Notes: generated from the sequence alone by a model not told the origin. Positions 36,321 to 44,973 are shown, counted from the stretch's first letter. The stretch: DNA of 64,000 bases from Deltaproteobacteria bacterium (GCA_016183235.1 JACPFA010000026.1:33284-97283); one strand, 5' to 3'. Program-made: numbers and translations.

Positions 36321-37040
36321 ATGGAAAGATTAAGCCTCTGGGCCACTTTAGGTATTTTTTTAGCCATTGCCCTGTTGTTTGTGGGCGCCGAACTCGTGGT
36401 AGGCATGGGATTCATGGCCATACAAACTTGGCGCCACCCCGAAAGCGATCTTGCGCTTTATGTCCACAATTTAAGTTTCGATGGTATTTATTTTAGCCTC
36501 ACCACTTTAGCTCGCGCCTTGTTTTGCACCGCCTTGCTCGGGGGATTTTTGAAAATGCAAGGGCTACCGGTCGCTCGTTATTTGGCCCTCAAAAAATTTG
36601 CCTGGCCTCGTTATTTATTTTGGCAGATCACTTTGATCGCCTATTTAGTTTGCAGCGAATATGGGATGCAGAAGTTAGGCTTTCCCGTCGTGCATGAATT
36701 TATGGAAACCATCTACAAAAATGCAGGGTCTCTGCTCCTCTTGTGGATTGCGCTCATCATCGCTGCACCTTTATTAGAAGAATTAGTGTTTCGTGGGTTG
36801 CTTTACCAAGGCATTGCCACCACTAGGCTAGCCGTGCCCGGGGCTATTATCATCCCCGCCTTGCTTTGGGCTTTGACGCACTTTCAATACCACGGAATCT
36901 TCATGGGCATCATCTTGGGGGGTGGAATTTTATTGGGGCTGGCGCGCTGGCATACCGGTTCTACCTTGGCAACCCTTGGGCTACATGCCTCGTGGAATCT
37001 CATTTCTACACTGCTCGCCCATTATTACTTGGGCTCATAA
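36321..37040 (+). CDS. CPBP-family intramembrane glutamic endopeptidase (CAAX protease-like)
   Basis: 239 aa, polytopic, with motif 1 LLEELVFRGLLY, a later ALTHFQYH, and HASWN near the C-terminus. Confidence 0.85.
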   Translation: MERLSLWATLGIFLAIALLFVGAELVVGMGFMAIQTWRHPESDLALYVHNLSFDGIYFSLTTLARALFCTALLGGFLKMQGLPVARYLALKKFAWPRYLFWQITLIAYLVCSEYGMQKLGFPVVHEFMETIYKNAGSLLLLWIALIIAAPLLEELVFRGLLYQGIATTRLAVPGAIIIPALLWALTHFQYHGIFMGIILGGGILLGLARWHTGSTLATLGLHASWNLISTLLAHYYLGS

Positions 37041-40000
37041 CCAAGGTAGGCCTCCGTTTGACGCACTTCTTGACGCAGGGTGGGTCTTTTTTCGAACAAG
37101 GGGGCAAAGGGCTCATAGGCCGAGGGGCCGCTTATTTGGGCCTCTTTAACCATGTATTCCGAAAGCACCAGGGCTAAGTGATCGGACTCTGCAATGTGCC
37201 CCAACCAAAATTCGATGGCTCGGTCGGGTAATTTATCTTTTAAATGTGCCCGCCCTATATTCCATAACATGGTTGAATGGGTATCGTGGCCGGGCGGTAA
37301 GAACTCGAGATATTTCTGCCCTATTTCAGCGGCCATCCCATAAGAAGCTCGGTCATAATAATCATCAAACTGTCGGAGATACACCCTAAGCAAGCCCTCG
37401 CGGGGTTCGTGAAAATTAGGGTCTAAACGCAATGCCATTTCCAAATGGCGGATGGCCTTGGCTTCATCGTGTTGGTGAAGAAAATAGACCCCAACACTGT
37501 AGTTTAACTTGGCCATGGTCTGCCGTGGATAGCCCATGAGGCCGTCAATACCCAATGCCTCGTGGTAGCTGAGCAAACCCTTTCGTACGGATTCAGGGAT
37601 CAGAGCTGCTACTTCAGCTAAGCGACGCTCATTAACCAAGATTTCTGAGAGCAGCGCAAAGGCATCGAGTTGATGAGGATCTCGGGCAAGCATGTCCCTT
37701 AAAATCTTTTCAGCATCGGCTACTTGGCCCAAACGATAGTGTTTTTCAGCAGATCTTATCAAGATGTTACGATCGGCAAGAAACTGTGTGCCTAAACGTT
37801 TCACCCTAACCAACCCTTCATCAACAGAACCTCGTGCGGCCCACTGAGCCAATGGAACCGCCAAAAGATGCTCTAAGCCGGGGGGCTCGGCCAAATGCCT
37901 TGCCGCTACCCGCCCCGCGCCCACGTAACGTTTGGGATGATAAAGTTTGCCCCGAAATGGGTCAAAAAATGCACCTTCCCCCAGGGGCGCCCAGAGTGCG
38001 TAATTGCGATCCAGGGGCACGGCGCGAAAGGCAATGCCGGCTTGGTGTCCCAGATGGGCAGCCAGGGCGTTCAAGGCGTAAGTGGGTTCGGTATAAGGAT
38101 AGGCACCTAACTCTCCCCGCAACAGGGCGGCTAATTCTGTGGGATATTCCCACCTGCTGCGGAAGGGGGTTAACACGCTCGCGGGGCCACCAAAATAAGT
38201 CTTTAGTTGGGCCAACCGATAAAGCAGATCATAATCGCTGCCACCGTGGTTTAAAGAAATGCCTCCCCTAATCGCTTGTTCGGCCAGCTCTCTTGATGCA
38301 TCTAAAAATGCAGGGAATCGTAAGGGGTCTTGCCTGAATCCTTCAAAATAAGCCTCCAAACCTTGCACCAATGGCGTCAATGCGCTTACAGACGTATGCC
38401 CGTTGGGATAAGTTAACTCTTCTGCTACCAGATAGGCCTCGGCAATCCTGCCTGCTGCAACCAACTTCAAGAGATCGGGCCAAGCATGGGCACGCCCCTC
38501 GGCAAAATCTTGAGCCAAGTGATCTAATGGAATTCTCTCGAGGGGGTCATGAGTCAAGGGGGGTGGCTGCCAGGCCAATGCTCTCGCCACTAGTACAGGA
38601 TCGTGAGTGGTCAAATCGTCTGCAAAGGCCTTGGCTAAAGCATAGGCAGTGGCGTAATCCCGCCTTGTTTCAAGAAGTTCAATTTGGGTCAATAAAAATG
38701 GGACTATTACCTCCGGCTCTAAAGTAGCCGCGTGACGAAAATAGGCTATGGCTTCGTCTAAATAACCTTGCCCTAGGCTAGTCGTTCCTAAATCACTATA
38801 AACTTCAACCGCATTGGGCCTGAATTGGGCCAACTTAAGCAATACCTCGCGAGCCTTCCGGAATGTATTGCGGAATGCCTTGGTACGTTGGCGGGCATCA
38901 GTAGCATAAGACTGCCGCTTGATTGCCTCCAATTGCACATGATAGGCTTCAACCAATAAGTTTTGTATCTCTTGGCCTTGAGGAAAAAGCTTATGACCCA
39001 ACTCGAGCACCCTGACAGCGTTGTCATAGTTGGTTTCAGCCAAATACATGCCCCCTAAATTGGCAAAGGCCGCTTGAGCAGTATGATCGTCCACCCACAA
39101 ATGAGACCCTTGGTAGGCCCTGCCCTCTCCCCCTGCTCGCACGGTCAAAATCGCCACGGCTGCTTCTAGGTGTTGCCTAACCTCAACTTCAGTGGTGGCA
39201 TCACCCCCTTCTTCTATCAACCACTGCGCTAAGGCAACGCGAGCAAAAACATAGCGCGGATGCTGGCTAACAAAGATTCGCAAGTGAGCGATGGCTTCTT
39301 TTTTAAGCCCTTTATCTGCTAGAAAAAAAGCTTTATTTATCTGAACAGTAGTCGTCTCCAGCCCTAGCGCTTCGAGTAAAACCACTATTTTGTCTCGATG
39401 TTCTGAACTTCTTGCAAACCTAAGTAAGGGATTGGTCAAGAGGGCCTCTACAGGCTGTGGCTGTTGATCGGCATTCAAAACCTGTTTTTTTGACTCATAA
39501 TAGGCAGGGGGCAGCAAATCTCCGCTCTGTGGTTCGAAATAAAGCCCACCCCCTTGCGGGGTAAAAAGGGCAACGTGCCGTTCAGGAGAAAGGGTCTGGA
39601 ACTCCACCCCTACCCGGTGCCCCAAATGAGCAGCCAAGACAGCCGCAGGATGGCAGCTCCCTCGGTCAGCCAAACGTCCGGGTCGCTTCATCAACAAGTC
39701 GGTGAGCGTGGTGGGAAGGTTCCCCCTTTCAAAGGGGCGCAAGATCCTCCAATGATGAACCATAAAATCGGCGATCTGAGCAATCTTGTAAAAATGATCG
39801 ATGGTATTAGGGTCTAAGACAATGCCCTGCATAAAATTCGCAACGTTGATCTCACGATCATCGAGCGTTCGCTGAATTAAGTCCAATTTTTCCCCAAAAG
39901 GGACTTGCCTGGGCTCGCGATAATGGTCGGCAAAATCTCTCTCCATGAATCTTAAGGCCCCCGAAGCCAGTTCATAATCCCTGACATCAAACCCCCCTGT

Positions 40001-40489
40001 CTCTGCTGCATCCGCTTCGATTTTCAAGAGGGCGTCGGCCAACAGGCCTTCTTCTCGCAACGCGGTTAATCTTGCACGCGCTGGGGCTGCCTCTTTGGTT
40101 TTGTTAATTTCATCCAGGAGTTCCCTAACCCTGGTTTTACGGGGATCCGAGGTTCTACCACCCTTTGCGTTGGGGCCTTGTTCGCTCATCATCCAAGTTT
40201 GGGGAGGTCGCCCACGACCTGCGGCTGCCCAGGCAAGGCTTGGCCCCGCGGCCAGGCCCGCTGGGAGGTTGTTGAAAAAGCCCGGCAAATTACGCCCCGC
40301 ATGTTCGTAAATGCGAGTGAGCCGCGGATTTCGCGCAATGCTGCGATGCAGCCGTGCTTCCAAAGCTTGCCTGGTTTCAAATCGATGCACCTGCGGTATC
40401 GCCGCTCGCACCAAATAGCCCGCCGCACCTAACTCCGCCGTCGTGGCCGTTGCATGCACCCCCGCATATCGGCACCGCATGTCTTGCAA
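37025..40489 (-). CDS. large TPR protein with two transglutaminase-core-like (SirB1/UPF0162-like) modules
   Basis: 1154-aa ORF with an internal duplication: RGSCHPAAVLAAHLGHRVGVEFQTLSPERHVALFTPQGGGLYFEPQSGDLL vs EPTYALNALAAHLGHQAGIAFRAVPLDRNYALWAPLGEGAFFDPFRGKLY. Each copy is followed by TPR-like helices. The N-terminal boundary is uncertain: TTG 40489, ATG 40480 or ATG 40192. Confidence 0.6.
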   Translation of the reverse strand: MQDMRCRYAGVHATATTAELGAAGYLVRAAIPQVHRFETRQALEARLHRSIARNPRLTRIYEHAGRNLPGFFNNLPAGLAAGPSLAWAAAGRGRPPQTWMMSEQGPNAKGGRTSDPRKTRVRELLDEINKTKEAAPARARLTALREEGLLADALLKIEADAAETGGFDVRDYELASGALRFMERDFADHYREPRQVPFGEKLDLIQRTLDDREINVANFMQGIVLDPNTIDHFYKIAQIADFMVHHWRILRPFERGNLPTTLTDLLMKRPGRLADRGSCHPAAVLAAHLGHRVGVEFQTLSPERHVALFTPQGGGLYFEPQSGDLLPPAYYESKKQVLNADQQPQPVEALLTNPLLRFARSSEHRDKIVVLLEALGLETTTVQINKAFFLADKGLKKEAIAHLRIFVSQHPRYVFARVALAQWLIEEGGDATTEVEVRQHLEAAVAILTVRAGGEGRAYQGSHLWVDDHTAQAAFANLGGMYLAETNYDNAVRVLELGHKLFPQGQEIQNLLVEAYHVQLEAIKRQSYATDARQRTKAFRNTFRKAREVLLKLAQFRPNAVEVYSDLGTTSLGQGYLDEAIAYFRHAATLEPEVIVPFLLTQIELLETRRDYATAYALAKAFADDLTTHDPVLVARALAWQPPPLTHDPLERIPLDHLAQDFAEGRAHAWPDLLKLVAAGRIAEAYLVAEELTYPNGHTSVSALTPLVQGLEAYFEGFRQDPLRFPAFLDASRELAEQAIRGGISLNHGGSDYDLLYRLAQLKTYFGGPASVLTPFRSRWEYPTELAALLRGELGAYPYTEPTYALNALAAHLGHQAGIAFRAVPLDRNYALWAPLGEGAFFDPFRGKLYHPKRYVGAGRVAARHLAEPPGLEHLLAVPLAQWAARGSVDEGLVRVKRLGTQFLADRNILIRSAEKHYRLGQVADAEKILRDMLARDPHQLDAFALLSEILVNERRLAEVAALIPESVRKGLLSYHEALGIDGLMGYPRQTMAKLNYSVGVYFLHQHDEAKAIRHLEMALRLDPNFHEPREGLLRVYLRQFDDYYDRASYGMAAEIGQKYLEFLPPGHDTHSTMLWNIGRAHLKDKLPDRAIEFWLGHIAESDHLALVLSEYMVKEAQISGPSAYEPFAPLFEKRPTLRQEVRQTEAYLGYEPK

Positions 40490-41549
40490 CCCCCTCCGTC
40501 ACCTTCAAATATTCCAAATGTCTCGTCGCTAATCCCGCTGCATTGATCCCATGAATCGCTTCTCGCCCCGCCAACCCTATGCCAACCCCAGCCCTCACTC
40601 CCCCAAAAATAACCGCATTATGCGCCCAGGTTTGCCAATAACGACCCCAGTTGATTTCCCCATGCTGGCTCATTTCCATCCAGGCTGTCACATACGTCAC
40701 TTCTGCCGCAGTTGCAGTCGTTGCCGATAATAACTCCCACACCCTCGCTTGACTTGCTCCCTCCACTAAACCTATCCCTCGCTGCATCACCCAGCCCTTC
40801 ACCCACCGCGAGAGCAAACTCCCAGTGATCAGCATCCCCATCATATTCAGGCTACCTAATCTGCCTTGCAGCCCACGCGCGGCATGCACCACTTCAGCTG
40901 TTTTGTATTTTCCTTCTCCCTGCATCACACTCAAGGCCATGCTGGCATCGGCCACCACTTTGCCCTTGGCTAATCCCATGAGGCCGCTATCTAAAGATTG
41001 ATAAACAACTAAGGCACCGGCTTCGTGGCCTTCGCTCAAGTTATAGCTCGAAGCTAAAGCCAAAAGTTGTTGGCTTAAGATTTCTAGATGACTGGCGGAA
41101 GCGATTTGGCGGAGTTGGGTTAAAAAACCGTGACCACCCAGGGCTTGGGCAATGTGCGTTTTTTCTTCATCAGAAAGATTTGAATAGGCTTGTGAAAAGC
41201 TTTTGCCAGCCGCAATGGCTTGTTCTAATTTTTGCCAACTCACTTGATGAGAAACGGCATCGAAGCTTTCAGCCCCGGCCAACATTCGAGCGATGTCTTG
41301 AGCCACCCCTAAGACCACGAGGCCTTGGCGGTTTAAACGCAAATCTTCCCATAGCTTGAGTAAACGATCGGCCTCAGGGTTCCCCTTTGCTTTGGCTAAT
41401 TCGCCAATGCCGGCTTCTAAATCACCGGCCAGCACGTGCTCGGTGGCCGTGGCAATGTGCACCCCGGCTACGTCGCCCATAGCGTAGGCATCTGCCCGCC
41501 ATTGGCTAATTTTATCCTGTGAAATCGATGGAATAGACGGAGGCCCCAT
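40377..41549 (-). CDS. hypothetical protein (helical N-half, hydrophobic C-half)
   Basis: 390-aa ORF with no recognisable family. The last ~40 codons are Gly/Cys-rich and overlap the next ORF out of frame by 113 nt. Confidence 0.55.
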   Translation of the reverse strand: MGPPSIPSISQDKISQWRADAYAMGDVAGVHIATATEHVLAGDLEAGIGELAKAKGNPEADRLLKLWEDLRLNRQGLVVLGVAQDIARMLAGAESFDAVSHQVSWQKLEQAIAAGKSFSQAYSNLSDEEKTHIAQALGGHGFLTQLRQIASASHLEILSQQLLALASSYNLSEGHEAGALVVYQSLDSGLMGLAKGKVVADASMALSVMQGEGKYKTAEVVHAARGLQGRLGSLNMMGMLITGSLLSRWVKGWVMQRGIGLVEGASQARVWELLSATTATAAEVTYVTAWMEMSQHGEINWGRYWQTWAHNAVIFGGVRAGVGIGLAGREAIHGINAAGLATRHLEYLKVTEGVARHAVPICGGACNGHDGGVRCGGLFGASGDTAGASI

Positions 41550-41593: not shown

Positions 41594-42340
41594 TTAACGC
41601 GTTGCGTAAACTAGATATTCTTGATTACCTTTGTCACCCAAGATCGGAGAAGCCAAAACCCCTTGAACCTGAAAATCACACCCCTTTAGAAACTCCAAAA
41701 TTTTCTTTATCACCGCTTGTTGTTTTTCCGAGCTATGAATCACCCCACCTTTTTCCACCTCTCCCTTCCCCACTTCAAACTGGGGCTTGATCAACGCAAC
41801 TAAATTCCACTGGCCAGGGATCGCACGCACCAAATGAGGGATCACTTGGGTTAGAGAAATAAAGGCTACATCTACCACCACCAAGTTGATGGGTTCGGCA
41901 AAAATTTCGGGGCGCAAATCTTTCACGTGCAACTTTTCGAAACTGATCACCCGCGGGTCTTGACGCAAAGTATAGGCTAGCTGATTGGTACCCACATCAA
42001 TGGCGTAAACTTTTGACGCACCCGCTTGCAGCAGACAATCCGTGAATCCCCCGGTTGACGCACCCATATCCACACACACAAAATCTTTGACGCAGATTTT
42101 AAAATGGTCCAGGGCGGCCTTGAGTTTGAGGCCGCCCCGGCTCACATAGGGATGATCAACGCCTTTGAGGCGAAGGGTAGCGTTGGAGTTAAATTTTTCG
42201 CTGGACTTTAAGACCAAATGGTCATCTGCCACCACCTTGCCGGCCATAATGAGGCTCTGCGCCCGTTCGCGGGATGGGGCTAGTTTTTTTTCTACCAGCA
42301 ATAGATCAATACGTTTTTTCTTGGGTTGATGAGAAGTCAT
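41594..42340 (-). CDS. tlyA: TlyA-family rRNA 2'-O-methyltransferase (hemolysin A-like)
   Basis: 248 aa with an S4-like N-terminus (RIDLLLVEKKLAPSRERAQSLIMAGKV) and a SAM-binding motif VCVDMGASTGGFTDCLLQAGASKVYAIDVG. Confidence 0.9.
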   Translation of the reverse strand: MTSHQPKKKRIDLLLVEKKLAPSRERAQSLIMAGKVVADDHLVLKSSEKFNSNATLRLKGVDHPYVSRGGLKLKAALDHFKICVKDFVCVDMGASTGGFTDCLLQAGASKVYAIDVGTNQLAYTLRQDPRVISFEKLHVKDLRPEIFAEPINLVVVDVAFISLTQVIPHLVRAIPGQWNLVALIKPQFEVGKGEVEKGGVIHSSEKQQAVIKKILEFLKGCDFQVQGVLASPILGDKGNQEYLVYATR

Positions 42341-43583
42341 AGAATTTCTCTGGAGTTATAATATCAACCTGTTTCCCTAAAATGGGGGGCACAGTTTGCA
42401 TGCTACTCTTCACCTCATAGAGGCGAAGACGCTCCCCCTCACGAACCAAGATATCCGCCTCACGTTGGGTGTTCGATGAATACCAAGAATAAACACGTTT
42501 ATATTTTCGCGCAAAATGATTAACCACCACTGCCTCAAAAACCTTCCCTTTCATTTCTGAATCTTGAAGTTGATTTTTCCACCATTCAAAAATATTTTTT
42601 AAACCACGCAATAATCCTCCTGCCACCGCATAAAGTAGAGGATCAATAAAATAAATCTTTTTTGCCTTGCGCGGGGCCTCCATGTCTTTGTCGGGATCAT
42701 AGCACCCCAGCACATGACACAGAAAAGCAAGTTCCAAATGCGCAACATAGGCAGCCGCGGTCTCATGGCTTTTGACAGGGGATTTTTCAATCAAACGTTG
42801 ATACGTCACTTGACTTGTAAGTGTGTCAAAAATCCGAAACATGATGTGCACGAGGATGTCACGAGAAAGTTCAAAACGATGGGCATCTCCAAAGATCCAA
42901 TTCGCATAGGTTTCATAGGTTTCATCAGAAACCCCACCTAATTGGCAATAATCACGAATTGCATGTGGAAACCCACCCACTTCTAAATATATTTGAAACC
43001 GAGCATGAGCATCGATGTGTTGAAAGCAGGGAAGGCCTGCATAGTCTCGAAGCGAGAGCGGGAAAAGGCTCACCTCTTTTACATTTCTCCCGGGAAAACG
43101 CTCTGCCATTTTTTTAAGATCTCTGGCATTAGAACCCGAGATCAAAAGAAAGGATTTTCGAAGTAAACCAGAATTTAAAAGCCATAAGATACCCCTCTGC
43201 CATTCCTCCACAAAAGTAATCTCATCAAGGCAAAGGAAAAGCCGCTCATGTTGTTTTGCTTTTAGCCAATCCACTAAAATTTGCTGCAATTCTGAATAAT
43301 TCTCGATGGCTTCACACGTTAAAAATAAACAATGGGCTGCCTTGACGCCATCCAACGAAATGGCTCGAGCGATGAGTTCTTTCATCAATGTCGTTTTTCC
43401 AATTTGTCTTGGGCCACGAATCAAAAAAGAATGCCCCATCTGAAATTGGAGTTCTTTTTTTATAGGATGATCAAAATACCAAGGTTTGTTCAAAACGGCG
43501 ATAAGATGGGGATCCTGTTCATGGGCATGTGGGTTAGCCCACCAAGGATTGAGAATTTCAAGACTTTTTGTATCTATAACCAT
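42306..43583 (-). CDS. AAA+ ATPase of the AAA_14/DUF4143 type
   Basis: 425 aa with Walker A IRGPRQIGKTT and Walker B-like FLCLDEI. The C-terminal half resembles the DUF4143 region. The assignment is from memory of the family pattern. Confidence 0.65.
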   Translation of the reverse strand: MVIDTKSLEILNPWWANPHAHEQDPHLIAVLNKPWYFDHPIKKELQFQMGHSFLIRGPRQIGKTTLMKELIARAISLDGVKAAHCLFLTCEAIENYSELQQILVDWLKAKQHERLFLCLDEITFVEEWQRGILWLLNSGLLRKSFLLISGSNARDLKKMAERFPGRNVKEVSLFPLSLRDYAGLPCFQHIDAHARFQIYLEVGGFPHAIRDYCQLGGVSDETYETYANWIFGDAHRFELSRDILVHIMFRIFDTLTSQVTYQRLIEKSPVKSHETAAAYVAHLELAFLCHVLGCYDPDKDMEAPRKAKKIYFIDPLLYAVAGGLLRGLKNIFEWWKNQLQDSEMKGKVFEAVVVNHFARKYKRVYSWYSSNTQREADILVREGERLRLYEVKSSMQTVPPILGKQVDIITPEKFYDFSSTQEKTY

Positions 43584-43617
43584 TTGATTTTATTTATAAA
43601 TTTTGTATATTTTATAT

Positions 43618-43637
43618 TATGCAATTATAATCGCATA
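43618..43637. promoter_or_regulatory. near-perfect 20-bp palindrome containing TATAAT, a possible promoter/operator of the ATPase gene
   Basis: TATGCAATTATAATCGCATA (18 of 20 positions symmetric) lies 35-54 nt upstream of the ATG at 43583. Confidence 0.3.
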
Positions 43638-43677
43638 ATTTTGTGAAAGGATCAATGTCTGATTTGCCGTAAGGTTA

Positions 43678-44973
43678 TTATCCAAAAAACCGCAGGGCTT
43701 CCTTTAACTCAGGTTTTCCTTGTGCATAAACTTCCAGAGAAGTTCCTTGCTGCACGGCTTCCCAGGCTTGTTGCAGGCTTTTCGCCCCCGCACTCACCCC
43801 CATGGGATGGTTAAAGACCCCACGCCCCGAAATAAAACCAAAATCAACGTGGCCAATTTTTTCATACACGCGAGGCAGGCTACCCGCCCAATCGCTGCCA
43901 CCGGGGATGGGAAGGCTAGCAGAAATCTGCCCCAGGGGGGCCAAACAGGCTGCCACGTTGGCCAAGACTTCTTCGTCGGTATTGTGCATGCGCTCGCCAA
44001 AACCGGAAAGGCCAATCATGTCACAGCCGGCCAAACGCAAGAGTTTGGTCCACACCACGGTATGCACCCCAAAATACTGCATGCGCGAGCTAATGGCCTC
44101 ACCGGCAAAATGACCCATTATAGGTAGTTTAGAAATTTTGCGCAAACTCACCACCGACGAAATGCCCATGGTGAAAGGATTCACCATCACGGCATTACTT
44201 CCGCTTGCTTCTACTTTTTGGTAATTCGCCAATAATTCGTCGGCTTCTCCACTGATATTCATGATCATCATTTTCTTATCGCCAGTTTCTTTTTCAGCAG
44301 CCTGCCGCCTATGCCCACATTGCTTGGCCCGCCGCTCGAGGGGCGAATTTACCTGATCAGCCAACATTTCATCGTCTTTGGTAATGTCTAACCCCCCCAA
44401 CCAGGCTTCATAAGCCCGCTGGGCAAAATCCCCCACGGGCAAGCCTAAGTTGGGCTTTACCACACCAATAAAAAAAGGCCTCCCCTTCACGCCCAAACTT
44501 TGACGCAAGCCCGCTAGCCCAAATTGGGGGCCCACAAAATTTTGCAAAAAGGTATCGGGAAGTTCCAGATTCATCAATTTAATAGTGGTAATGCCCGGAC
44601 AATAAAAGGGGCCCTCGCCAGCTAGCGCGGTTAAAAGATTAGCGAGCCTTGGCCCAAAATTAATATGGGGGTGAGCCACCCTCACCCGGCAGCGAGAATA
44701 GCGTTCTGAAATCCTGGCCGCCTCTGGGTATAAAGGCTTGCTCGATTCCCCCACCACTTCTAGATTCAAAACAAAGGCCCCGTGAATTTTGCGAAAATCT
44801 TCTTTCACCCCCGGGCGTTTCCACTGCACAGTACTTTGCTCACAAGCCAAGCTCGCCGCCGCAAGCTGTGGCTCAACTGTGCATTCAAAAAAATAATCGG
44901 CCAGCACATATTTTTCTAAATCAAGCTGTTCGGGATTAATAAAAAAGCCTTCGGCCTCTTGGAGGGTCAACAT
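43678..44973 (-). CDS. RuBisCO large-subunit-like protein (form IV RLP), not a carboxylase
   Basis: 431 aa. GRPFFIGVVKPNLGL...AWLGGLDITKDDEML aligns to RuBisCO GCTIKPKLGL...GGLDFTKDDEN. K175, K201, D203 and E204 are kept. K177 is N, and the H294/R295, H327 and K334 positions are substituted in my manual alignment. Confidence 0.8.
   Translation of the reverse strand: MLTLQEAEGFFINPEQLDLEKYVLADYFFECTVEPQLAAASLACEQSTVQWKRPGVKEDFRKIHGAFVLNLEVVGESSKPLYPEAARISERYSRCRVRVAHPHINFGPRLANLLTALAGEGPFYCPGITTIKLMNLELPDTFLQNFVGPQFGLAGLRQSLGVKGRPFFIGVVKPNLGLPVGDFAQRAYEAWLGGLDITKDDEMLADQVNSPLERRAKQCGHRRQAAEKETGDKKMMIMNISGEADELLANYQKVEASGSNAVMVNPFTMGISSVVSLRKISKLPIMGHFAGEAISSRMQYFGVHTVVWTKLLRLAGCDMIGLSGFGERMHNTDEEVLANVAACLAPLGQISASLPIPGGSDWAGSLPRVYEKIGHVDFGFISGRGVFNHPMGVSAGAKSLQQAWEAVQQGTSLEVYAQGKPELKEALRFFG

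Follow-up and report, generated by a model that had tools for sequence, protein, structure and literature searches.

The locus and its two overlapping reading frames

The DNA analysed here, referred to below as the window, is a stretch of 64,000 nucleotides (nt) from a Deltaproteobacteria bacterium (GCA_016183235.1 JACPFA010000026.1:33284-97283), which corresponds to contig C43 of the metagenome-assembled genome G000 (2.6 Mb, 51 contigs). The bacterium is uncultured, and the beta subunit of its ATP synthase reaches no more than 83% identity with the subunits encoded in metagenome-assembled genomes labelled Myxococcota, Nitrospiraceae or Deltaproteobacteria. On its minus strand two large open reading frames (ORFs), designated P0001 (390 amino acids, aa) and P0002 (1154 aa), overlap by 113 nt, and the frame of P0002 is +1 relative to the frame of P0001. 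A preliminary description of this sequence had drawn attention to the out-of-frame overlap and had offered two readings of it, translational coupling of two genes or a single +1 frameshifted gene of about 1500 aa. The coordinates and frames of both ORFs were confirmed. The features needed for the analysis are given below. P0004 is a related protein from outside G000, L015 is the DNA of the orthologue on a metagenome contig (Ga0209211_10078137, 1597-2715), and C5 and C38 are contigs of G000 which carry paralogues.

41549..40377, minus strand: upstream ORF P0001 (390 aa)
40489..37025, minus strand: downstream ORF P0002 (1154 aa), open from 40498 and with an in-frame ATG at 40480
40467..41549, minus strand: N-terminal module (N-module), residues 1-361 (M...HAVPI) in frame 0, all-alpha and 75% identical to P0004
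40478..40497, minus strand: GGAGG (40497-40493) and +1-frame ATG (40480-40478), inside the frame-0 codons for TEGVARHA
40326..40468, minus strand: 143-nt tract identical to C5:20997-20855, beginning 2 nt before the lesion
40460..40466, minus strand: lesion TGCGGGG, 7 nt in place of 63 nt (21 codons, ASLTVLDKA.DP.GRSWFST.), from a DNA alignment of C43, L015, C38 and C5
40377..40466, minus strand: tail of P0001 (C362 to I390, followed by TGA), an out-of-frame reading of the conserved downstream module
37025..40459, minus strand: +1-frame C-terminal part, starting with the GTG that encodes V of VHATATTAEL and ending at the stop codon, 73% identical to P0004
40201..40268, minus strand: maximum of the G+C content, low-complexity linker PAGLAAGPSLAWAAAGRGRPPQ, where the homology between paralogues stops

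The impression that the upstream frame runs into an implausible Gly/Cys-rich tail while the downstream frame looks like ordinary protein proved to be correct. P0001 ends with CGGACNGHDGGVRCGGLFGASGDTAGASI before its stop codon, and this tail has no match in any homologue and reached a predicted local distance difference test score (pLDDT) of only about 27 in the AlphaFold2 model. The DNA of the tail region matches homologues exclusively in the +1 frame, and from VHATATTAELGAAGYL onward the homologues align with the downstream frame. The C-terminal part consists of the last conserved segment of the N-module, an Ala/Gly/Pro-rich linker and a TPR-rich region of about 1050 aa; TPR families were the only Pfam matches in P0002. 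A scan of the base composition also bore out the local GC-rich peak that had been noticed before. The 60-nt maximum of the entire 64-kb window (0.80) is located at 40201-40268, and the region 40100-40500 has a G+C content of 60% compared with a window mean of 47%, which places it within the top 0.2% of 400-nt windows.

Overlapping open frames by themselves are not rare in G000. The genome contains 245 same-strand pairs of open frames (at least 200 aa each) with a stop-to-stop overlap of 20-400 nt, and in 35 of these pairs the overlap amounts to at least 100 nt. The case therefore depends on the evidence from homology.

Homologues and the position of the break

With P0001 as query, HMMER was run exhaustively against 1.8 billion cluster representatives and identified three proteins. 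In addition, a collection of 5.8 billion protein clusters was searched by word index only, and this search yielded one relative from outside G000, P0004. The GTDB species genomes searched for the family contained no member beyond G000, and among 40 relatives the family search gave one match, which was weak. Within G000 we identified close paralogues of the N-terminal part on the contigs C38, C5 and C22 and distant paralogues on C29, C14 and C32.

These sequences were used for the comparison that had been suggested at the outset, namely whether the two parts are one protein in homologues. P0004 (1535 aa) aligns as a single polypeptide with residues 1-362 of P0001 (75% identity) and with residues 19-1154 of P0002 (73% identity), its residues 1-353 corresponding to the N-module and its residues 382-1535 to the C-terminal part. 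The paralogue on C38 likewise passes the corresponding position without interruption, in an open frame of 2230 aa. Five other members of the family are single open frames as well, those on C29 (1301 aa), C14 (1721 aa) and C32 (1718 aa) and the outside proteins P0006 and P0007, and the profile alignment of C32 passes the break in frame. Split copies were found only on C43 and C5, both in G000; no split homologue from outside this genome was detected among the 1.8 billion cluster representatives or in the word-indexed collection of 5.8 billion clusters. Since P0004, C38 and the other family members are in one frame across this point, the ancestral state, as judged from the alignments, is one gene of about 1,500 codons. 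Homology thus supports the frameshifted gene of the preliminary description, whereas its position and cause of the switch did not hold, because frame 0 is conserved past the proposed site.

The switch had been placed at ACGGAGGGGGTTGCAAGACATG, which comprises a first run of five G residues (G5) and the GGAGG resembling a Shine-Dalgarno (SD) sequence. These elements (40497-40490) are located in frame-0 sequence encoding the conserved TEG.ARHA. Conservation of frame 0 with P0004 and C38 extends through ...KVTEG(V/I)ARHAVP(I/V), down to 40467, and hence through TEGVARHAVPI for 30 nt beyond the first G5 run and the SD motif, which were for this reason rejected as the switch point. The frame in fact changes within the 7 nt at 40466-40460. 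At this position P0004 reads ...KVTEGIARHAVPVA-SLTVLDKAVDPNGRSWFSTA-VHATATTAEL..., and C38 reads likewise with small changes. In the window ...KVTEGVARHAVPI is found in frame 0, where the tail follows, and in the +1 frame the sequence is ...VHATATTAEL.... At the DNA level C38 and the orthologue contig L015 contain 63 nt between CCGATA and GTGCATGCA, and the window contains 7 nt, TGCGGGG; residues 348-385 of P0004 provided the protein-level comparison for the missing loop. The difference, a net loss of 56 nt, shifts all downstream sequence into the +1 frame. The junction forms a second G5 run (40463-40459), most of which is supplied by the lesion itself, and with one G fewer in this run the frame would be restored. 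The +1-frame ATG at 40480 derives from the conserved His-Ala codons CAT GCG, which are present in intact relatives too: C38 and L015 have the same CATGCG together with a weaker SD-like sequence, GAAGGGA.

The paralogue on C5 carries the same break. Its N-module, the 5' end of which is cut by the contig end, is followed by a 434-aa ORF in the +1 frame with a weak match to alpha/beta-hydrolases. The junction ATGCGGGGGTGCATGC is identical in C43 and C5, but the upstream contexts differ, and C5 has an additional in-frame deletion of 33 nt adjoining the junction (C5:20997-21010), which removes the stretch with GGAGG and the +1-frame ATG. Within the 143-nt tract 0-1 mismatches per 50 nt were counted between C43 and C5, compared with 5-7 per 50 nt in places upstream. 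Over the region 40268-41160 the identity of the N-module with C5 and C38 is a mosaic, in which tracts with 0 mismatches per 100 nt lie beside tracts with 14% divergence. The synonymous divergence (dS) of the N-module is 0.21 between C43 and C5, 0.45 between C43 and C38 and 0.84 between C43 and the orthologue, with a ratio of nonsynonymous to synonymous divergence (dN/dS) of 0.14-0.22. Divergence among the paralogues (dS 0.21-0.45) is thus lower than divergence from the orthologue (dS 0.84), which belongs to another population. Both the mosaic identity and the dS pattern, as sequence comparisons, indicate concerted evolution by gene conversion, by which the N-modules would be homogenised within the genome, and the 143-nt stretch of identity probably marks a recent conversion event that carried the lesion along.

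A third copy of the 14-mer ATGCGGGGGTGCAT was found on contig C40. It has unrelated surroundings without flanking similarity and was taken as a chance match. Homology among the paralogues ends abruptly at about 40268, in the GC-rich low-complexity linker.

Possible explanations for the split

In our judgement the two ORFs are probably two pieces of one gene of about 1,500 codons, which was split by a frameshifting deletion and which shares this deletion with the C5 paralogue through gene conversion. As in other frameshift-disrupted bacterial genes, the homologues are continuous, an indel that is not a multiple of three is located where the homology changes frame, and the upstream ORF ends in a short nonsense tail. 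Unlike in such genes, an identical lesion is present here in two paralogues with unrelated C-terminal parts, and the downstream ORFs are fully open. In the protein encoded by the ancestral gene, the lineage-specific all-alpha N-module would have preceded a C-terminal region rich in TPRs. Close to the end of this N-module, 63 nt of a variable loop would have been lost and the 7 nt TGCGGGG kept or gained, and the lesion would then have passed between the C43 and C5 paralogues in a short and recent gene-conversion event. The main product would be the N-module with a nonsense tail of 29 residues. The C-terminal part would be silent, or it would be made separately from the fortuitous GGAGG-N12-ATG at 40497-40478, and at most a small fraction of ribosomes (by slippage on GGG) or of transcripts would restore the full-length protein.

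The lesion is probably real at the DNA level and recent, or else tolerated. Recombination homogenises the N-modules of the family, and within this family the locus is, on these comparisons, either a pseudogene of recent origin or a gene that was newly split. Because a sister gene shows the same break, we regard it as an ordinary disrupted or split gene and not as a new decoding mechanism. If the lesion was moved by recent conversion, it can be young in at least one of the two copies, and both downstream ORFs would therefore still be open. The result is mainly of use for annotation, which should treat both ORFs as a single disrupted gene and should not read too much into the Gly/Cys-rich tail or into the apparent SD sequence and ATG. 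The split itself is of an ordinary kind; the case illustrates how, where the members of a family have an N-module in common, gene conversion may spread a lesion from one paralogue to another.

Some points weigh against a genuine deletion shared by conversion. Both broken copies keep long open downstream ORFs (1154 and 434 codons), which fit a very young lesion but equally well continued expression. The 143-nt identical tract sits at the ceiling of the assembler, no longer exact repeat being present in the assembly, so that the pairing of the upstream and downstream halves across this tract lacks independent support. A systematic base-calling error or a minority variant is also possible, and the loss of one homopolymer G would restore the frame in both copies. 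An artefact of this sort, in which the dominant sequence lacks one of the G residues, or retains the loop, and the gene is continuous, is nevertheless an improbable explanation for the split. It would fit with the position of the break on a homopolymer, with a paralogous repeat at the resolution limit of the assembler (interior exact repeats are concentrated at lengths of 141-143 nt) and with a metagenome-assembled genome in 51 contigs. However, the overlap between contig ends is 140-141 nt and no exact repeat in the assembly exceeds 143 nt, as is characteristic of a short-read assembly built from a de Bruijn graph with k=141. Homopolymer indels are uncommon in assemblies of this type, and this holds for indels in a G5 run. 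Moreover, the junction occurs in two upstream contexts, directly after CCGATA and directly after AAGGTA, and is thus supported by two independent sets of 141-mers. The loss of a 63-nt loop, finally, cannot be produced by a base-calling error.

Contig C22, which carries the first 187 residues of an N-module, overlaps the ends of C5 and C38 by 140 nt each; the assembly graph therefore branches inside the family, and at least one N-terminal region of the family is collapsed or unassembled. The orthologue contig L015 ends exactly at the start of the VHATATTAEL segment, and its assembly probably also breaks at a repeat shared by paralogues.

A different explanation would be a programmed or compensatory +1 shift. 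Ribosomes with tRNA-Gly(CCC) would slip from GGG at 40463-40461 to GGG at 40462-40460 and continue with GTG CAT GCA, which would yield a full-length protein of about 1,510 aa here and a fused protein from the C5 paralogue. Re-pairing on the G5 run would be perfect, and two paralogues that differ in their C-terminal parts share the site, the downstream ORF of each being intact. We nevertheless assign this explanation a low probability. The orthologue (P0004/L015) and all other family members are unshifted and the orthologue has no G5 junction, so the shift site is not conserved; nor are the two shifted copies independent, because the 143-nt identical tract is common to both. GGT, the A-site codon, is used often (22 per 1000 codons), as is GGG (19.7 per 1000), and the tRNA-Gly(GCC) for GGT is present. 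The genome has three ordinary tRNA-Gly genes (CCC, GCC and UCC), and neither a suppressor-type tRNA-Gly nor an absence of tRNA-Gly(CCC) was found in it. Counts in 802 long ORFs gave 597 in-frame occurrences of the dicodon GGG GGN, 181 of them GGG GGT, and no avoidance of in-frame GGG GGN was seen in this set. A motif that is so frequent in frame cannot by itself shift efficiently. The nearest SD-like sequence (GGAGG) is located about 29 nt upstream, and the predicted RNA fold across the junction and downstream of it (40500-40360) is no better than that of shuffled sequences (z = -0.15). No Rfam match was obtained at the junction at E values up to 1, and no internal promoter or terminator was found near it, the counts being at the level of shuffled sequences.

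In prfB (release factor 2) a +1 shift is needed as well, and the P-site codon re-pairs perfectly in the +1 frame. Unlike in prfB, where the SD-like stimulator lies only a few nt upstream of the shift site, the junction here has no stop or rare codon in the A site and neither a close SD-like element nor an RNA structure as stimulator; the site is unconserved in the orthologue and the motif is common throughout the genome. In insect endosymbionts, transcriptional slippage at long poly(A) tracts rescues frameshifted genes, and the presence of a homopolymer at the frameshift of an otherwise intact gene resembles our case. Such slippage needs runs of about nine or more A/T, and a run of five G is not known to allow it. 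Tracts of phase-variable contingency loci are usually 7 or more residues long and vary in length within the population; here the homopolymer is only G5 and does not differ between C43 and C5. A precedent in favor of a compensatory shift is provided by indel mutants of the herpesvirus thymidine kinase, in which low-level compensatory frameshifting on a run of 7-8 G was documented (PMC5009743). There too the indel lies in or next to a G run and rare slippage could give a little full-length product, but the run in the window has 5 G and its full-length product is hypothetical.

If functional +1 slippage were true, it would add a rare chromosomal case of bacterial +1 recoding beyond prfB, but the evidence points the opposite way. 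Very doubtful in our opinion is also a variant of this explanation, in which the G5 junction would be a functional recoding or switch site common to two paralogues, producing mostly free N-module and a set fraction of full-length fusions of the N-module with enzymes. A switch of this kind would be a short cassette, spread by gene conversion, which tunes the ratio of products for several family members via slippage on GGG-GGU.

The split could also be a selected two-gene arrangement, in which the N-module and the TPR protein are made separately and the second gene starts, coupled to the first, at ATG 40480 behind GGAGG. Both ORFs are intact, GGAGG is located 12 nt before the in-frame ATG (GGAGGGGG 9 nt before it), and changes of the window relative to C38 and L015 (GAA to GAG, ATC to GTT) strengthen the SD-like sequence. 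We still consider such a layout unlikely. The ATG at 40480 is located 101 nt upstream of the stop codon of P0001 (40379-40377), whereas overlaps in coupled genes are typically 1-4 nt. The ATG and most of the SD sequence stem from conserved frame-0 codons which unsplit relatives have as well, and precisely this SD sequence and this ATG are deleted in the C5 copy. In addition, the split interrupts a module, which in distant paralogues is conserved on both sides of this point, and does not fall at a domain boundary. An SD sequence before the downstream start was thus found, but not a conserved layout or a start near the upstream stop. Translational coupling as an evolved design, the other reading of the preliminary description, could therefore not be maintained, since neither the HMMER scan nor the word-index search gave a split homologue from outside G000 and the break lies within a conserved module. 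It is plausible that a restart at ATG 40480 is an accident of the split and not an ancestral design.

The N-terminal module family and the neighbourhood

The N-module matched no Pfam or NCBIfam family. AlphaFold2 predicted an all-helical structure with a pLDDT of 60, and a Foldseek search with this model gave no PDB match at E <=0.001. Two leads from a protein atlas for the identity of the N-module, PT-TG and Tle1-like C (score 0.85), turned out to be at chance level. Compared with the orthologue DNA L015, which covers the first 373 codons, the N-module has a dN/dS of 0.16, a value which shows it to be, by this measure, under purifying selection. The module, which is lineage-restricted and about 360-430 aa long, is located at the head of at least six large G000 proteins with unrelated C-terminal parts:

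C29:7420-11322: L009, protein kinase and FGE-sulfatase C-terminal part
C14:11956-17118: L010, C-terminal part without assigned family
C32:35401-40554: L011, PutA-type proline and aldehyde dehydrogenase
C38:91904-98593: L012, acyltransferase-containing, >2230 aa
C5:19699-21646: L013, alpha/beta-hydrolase-like part
40467-41549 of the window (module): the gene described here, TPR C-terminal part

In this respect the family resembles modular families such as the polymorphic toxins. At least six genes combine one conserved N-module of about 430 aa with C-terminal regions that are unrelated to one another, the identity between the copies is a mosaic, and the homology ends abruptly after the linker. 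Unlike in polymorphic toxins, no toxin, immunity, secretion or pre-toxin domain was detected here, and the partners include enzymes of a housekeeping type such as PutA. The N-module could serve as an anchor, targeting or assembly module.

The 3' end of P0002 overlaps by 16 nt (37025-37040) with a convergent gene for an Rce1-like CAAX protease (36321-37040, plus strand). The upstream neighbours on the same strand (41594-44973) encode a TlyA-like S4/FtsJ methyltransferase, an AAA_14/DUF4143 ATPase and a RuBisCO-like protein. The neighbouring genes are of a housekeeping type and have no evident functional link to the split gene.

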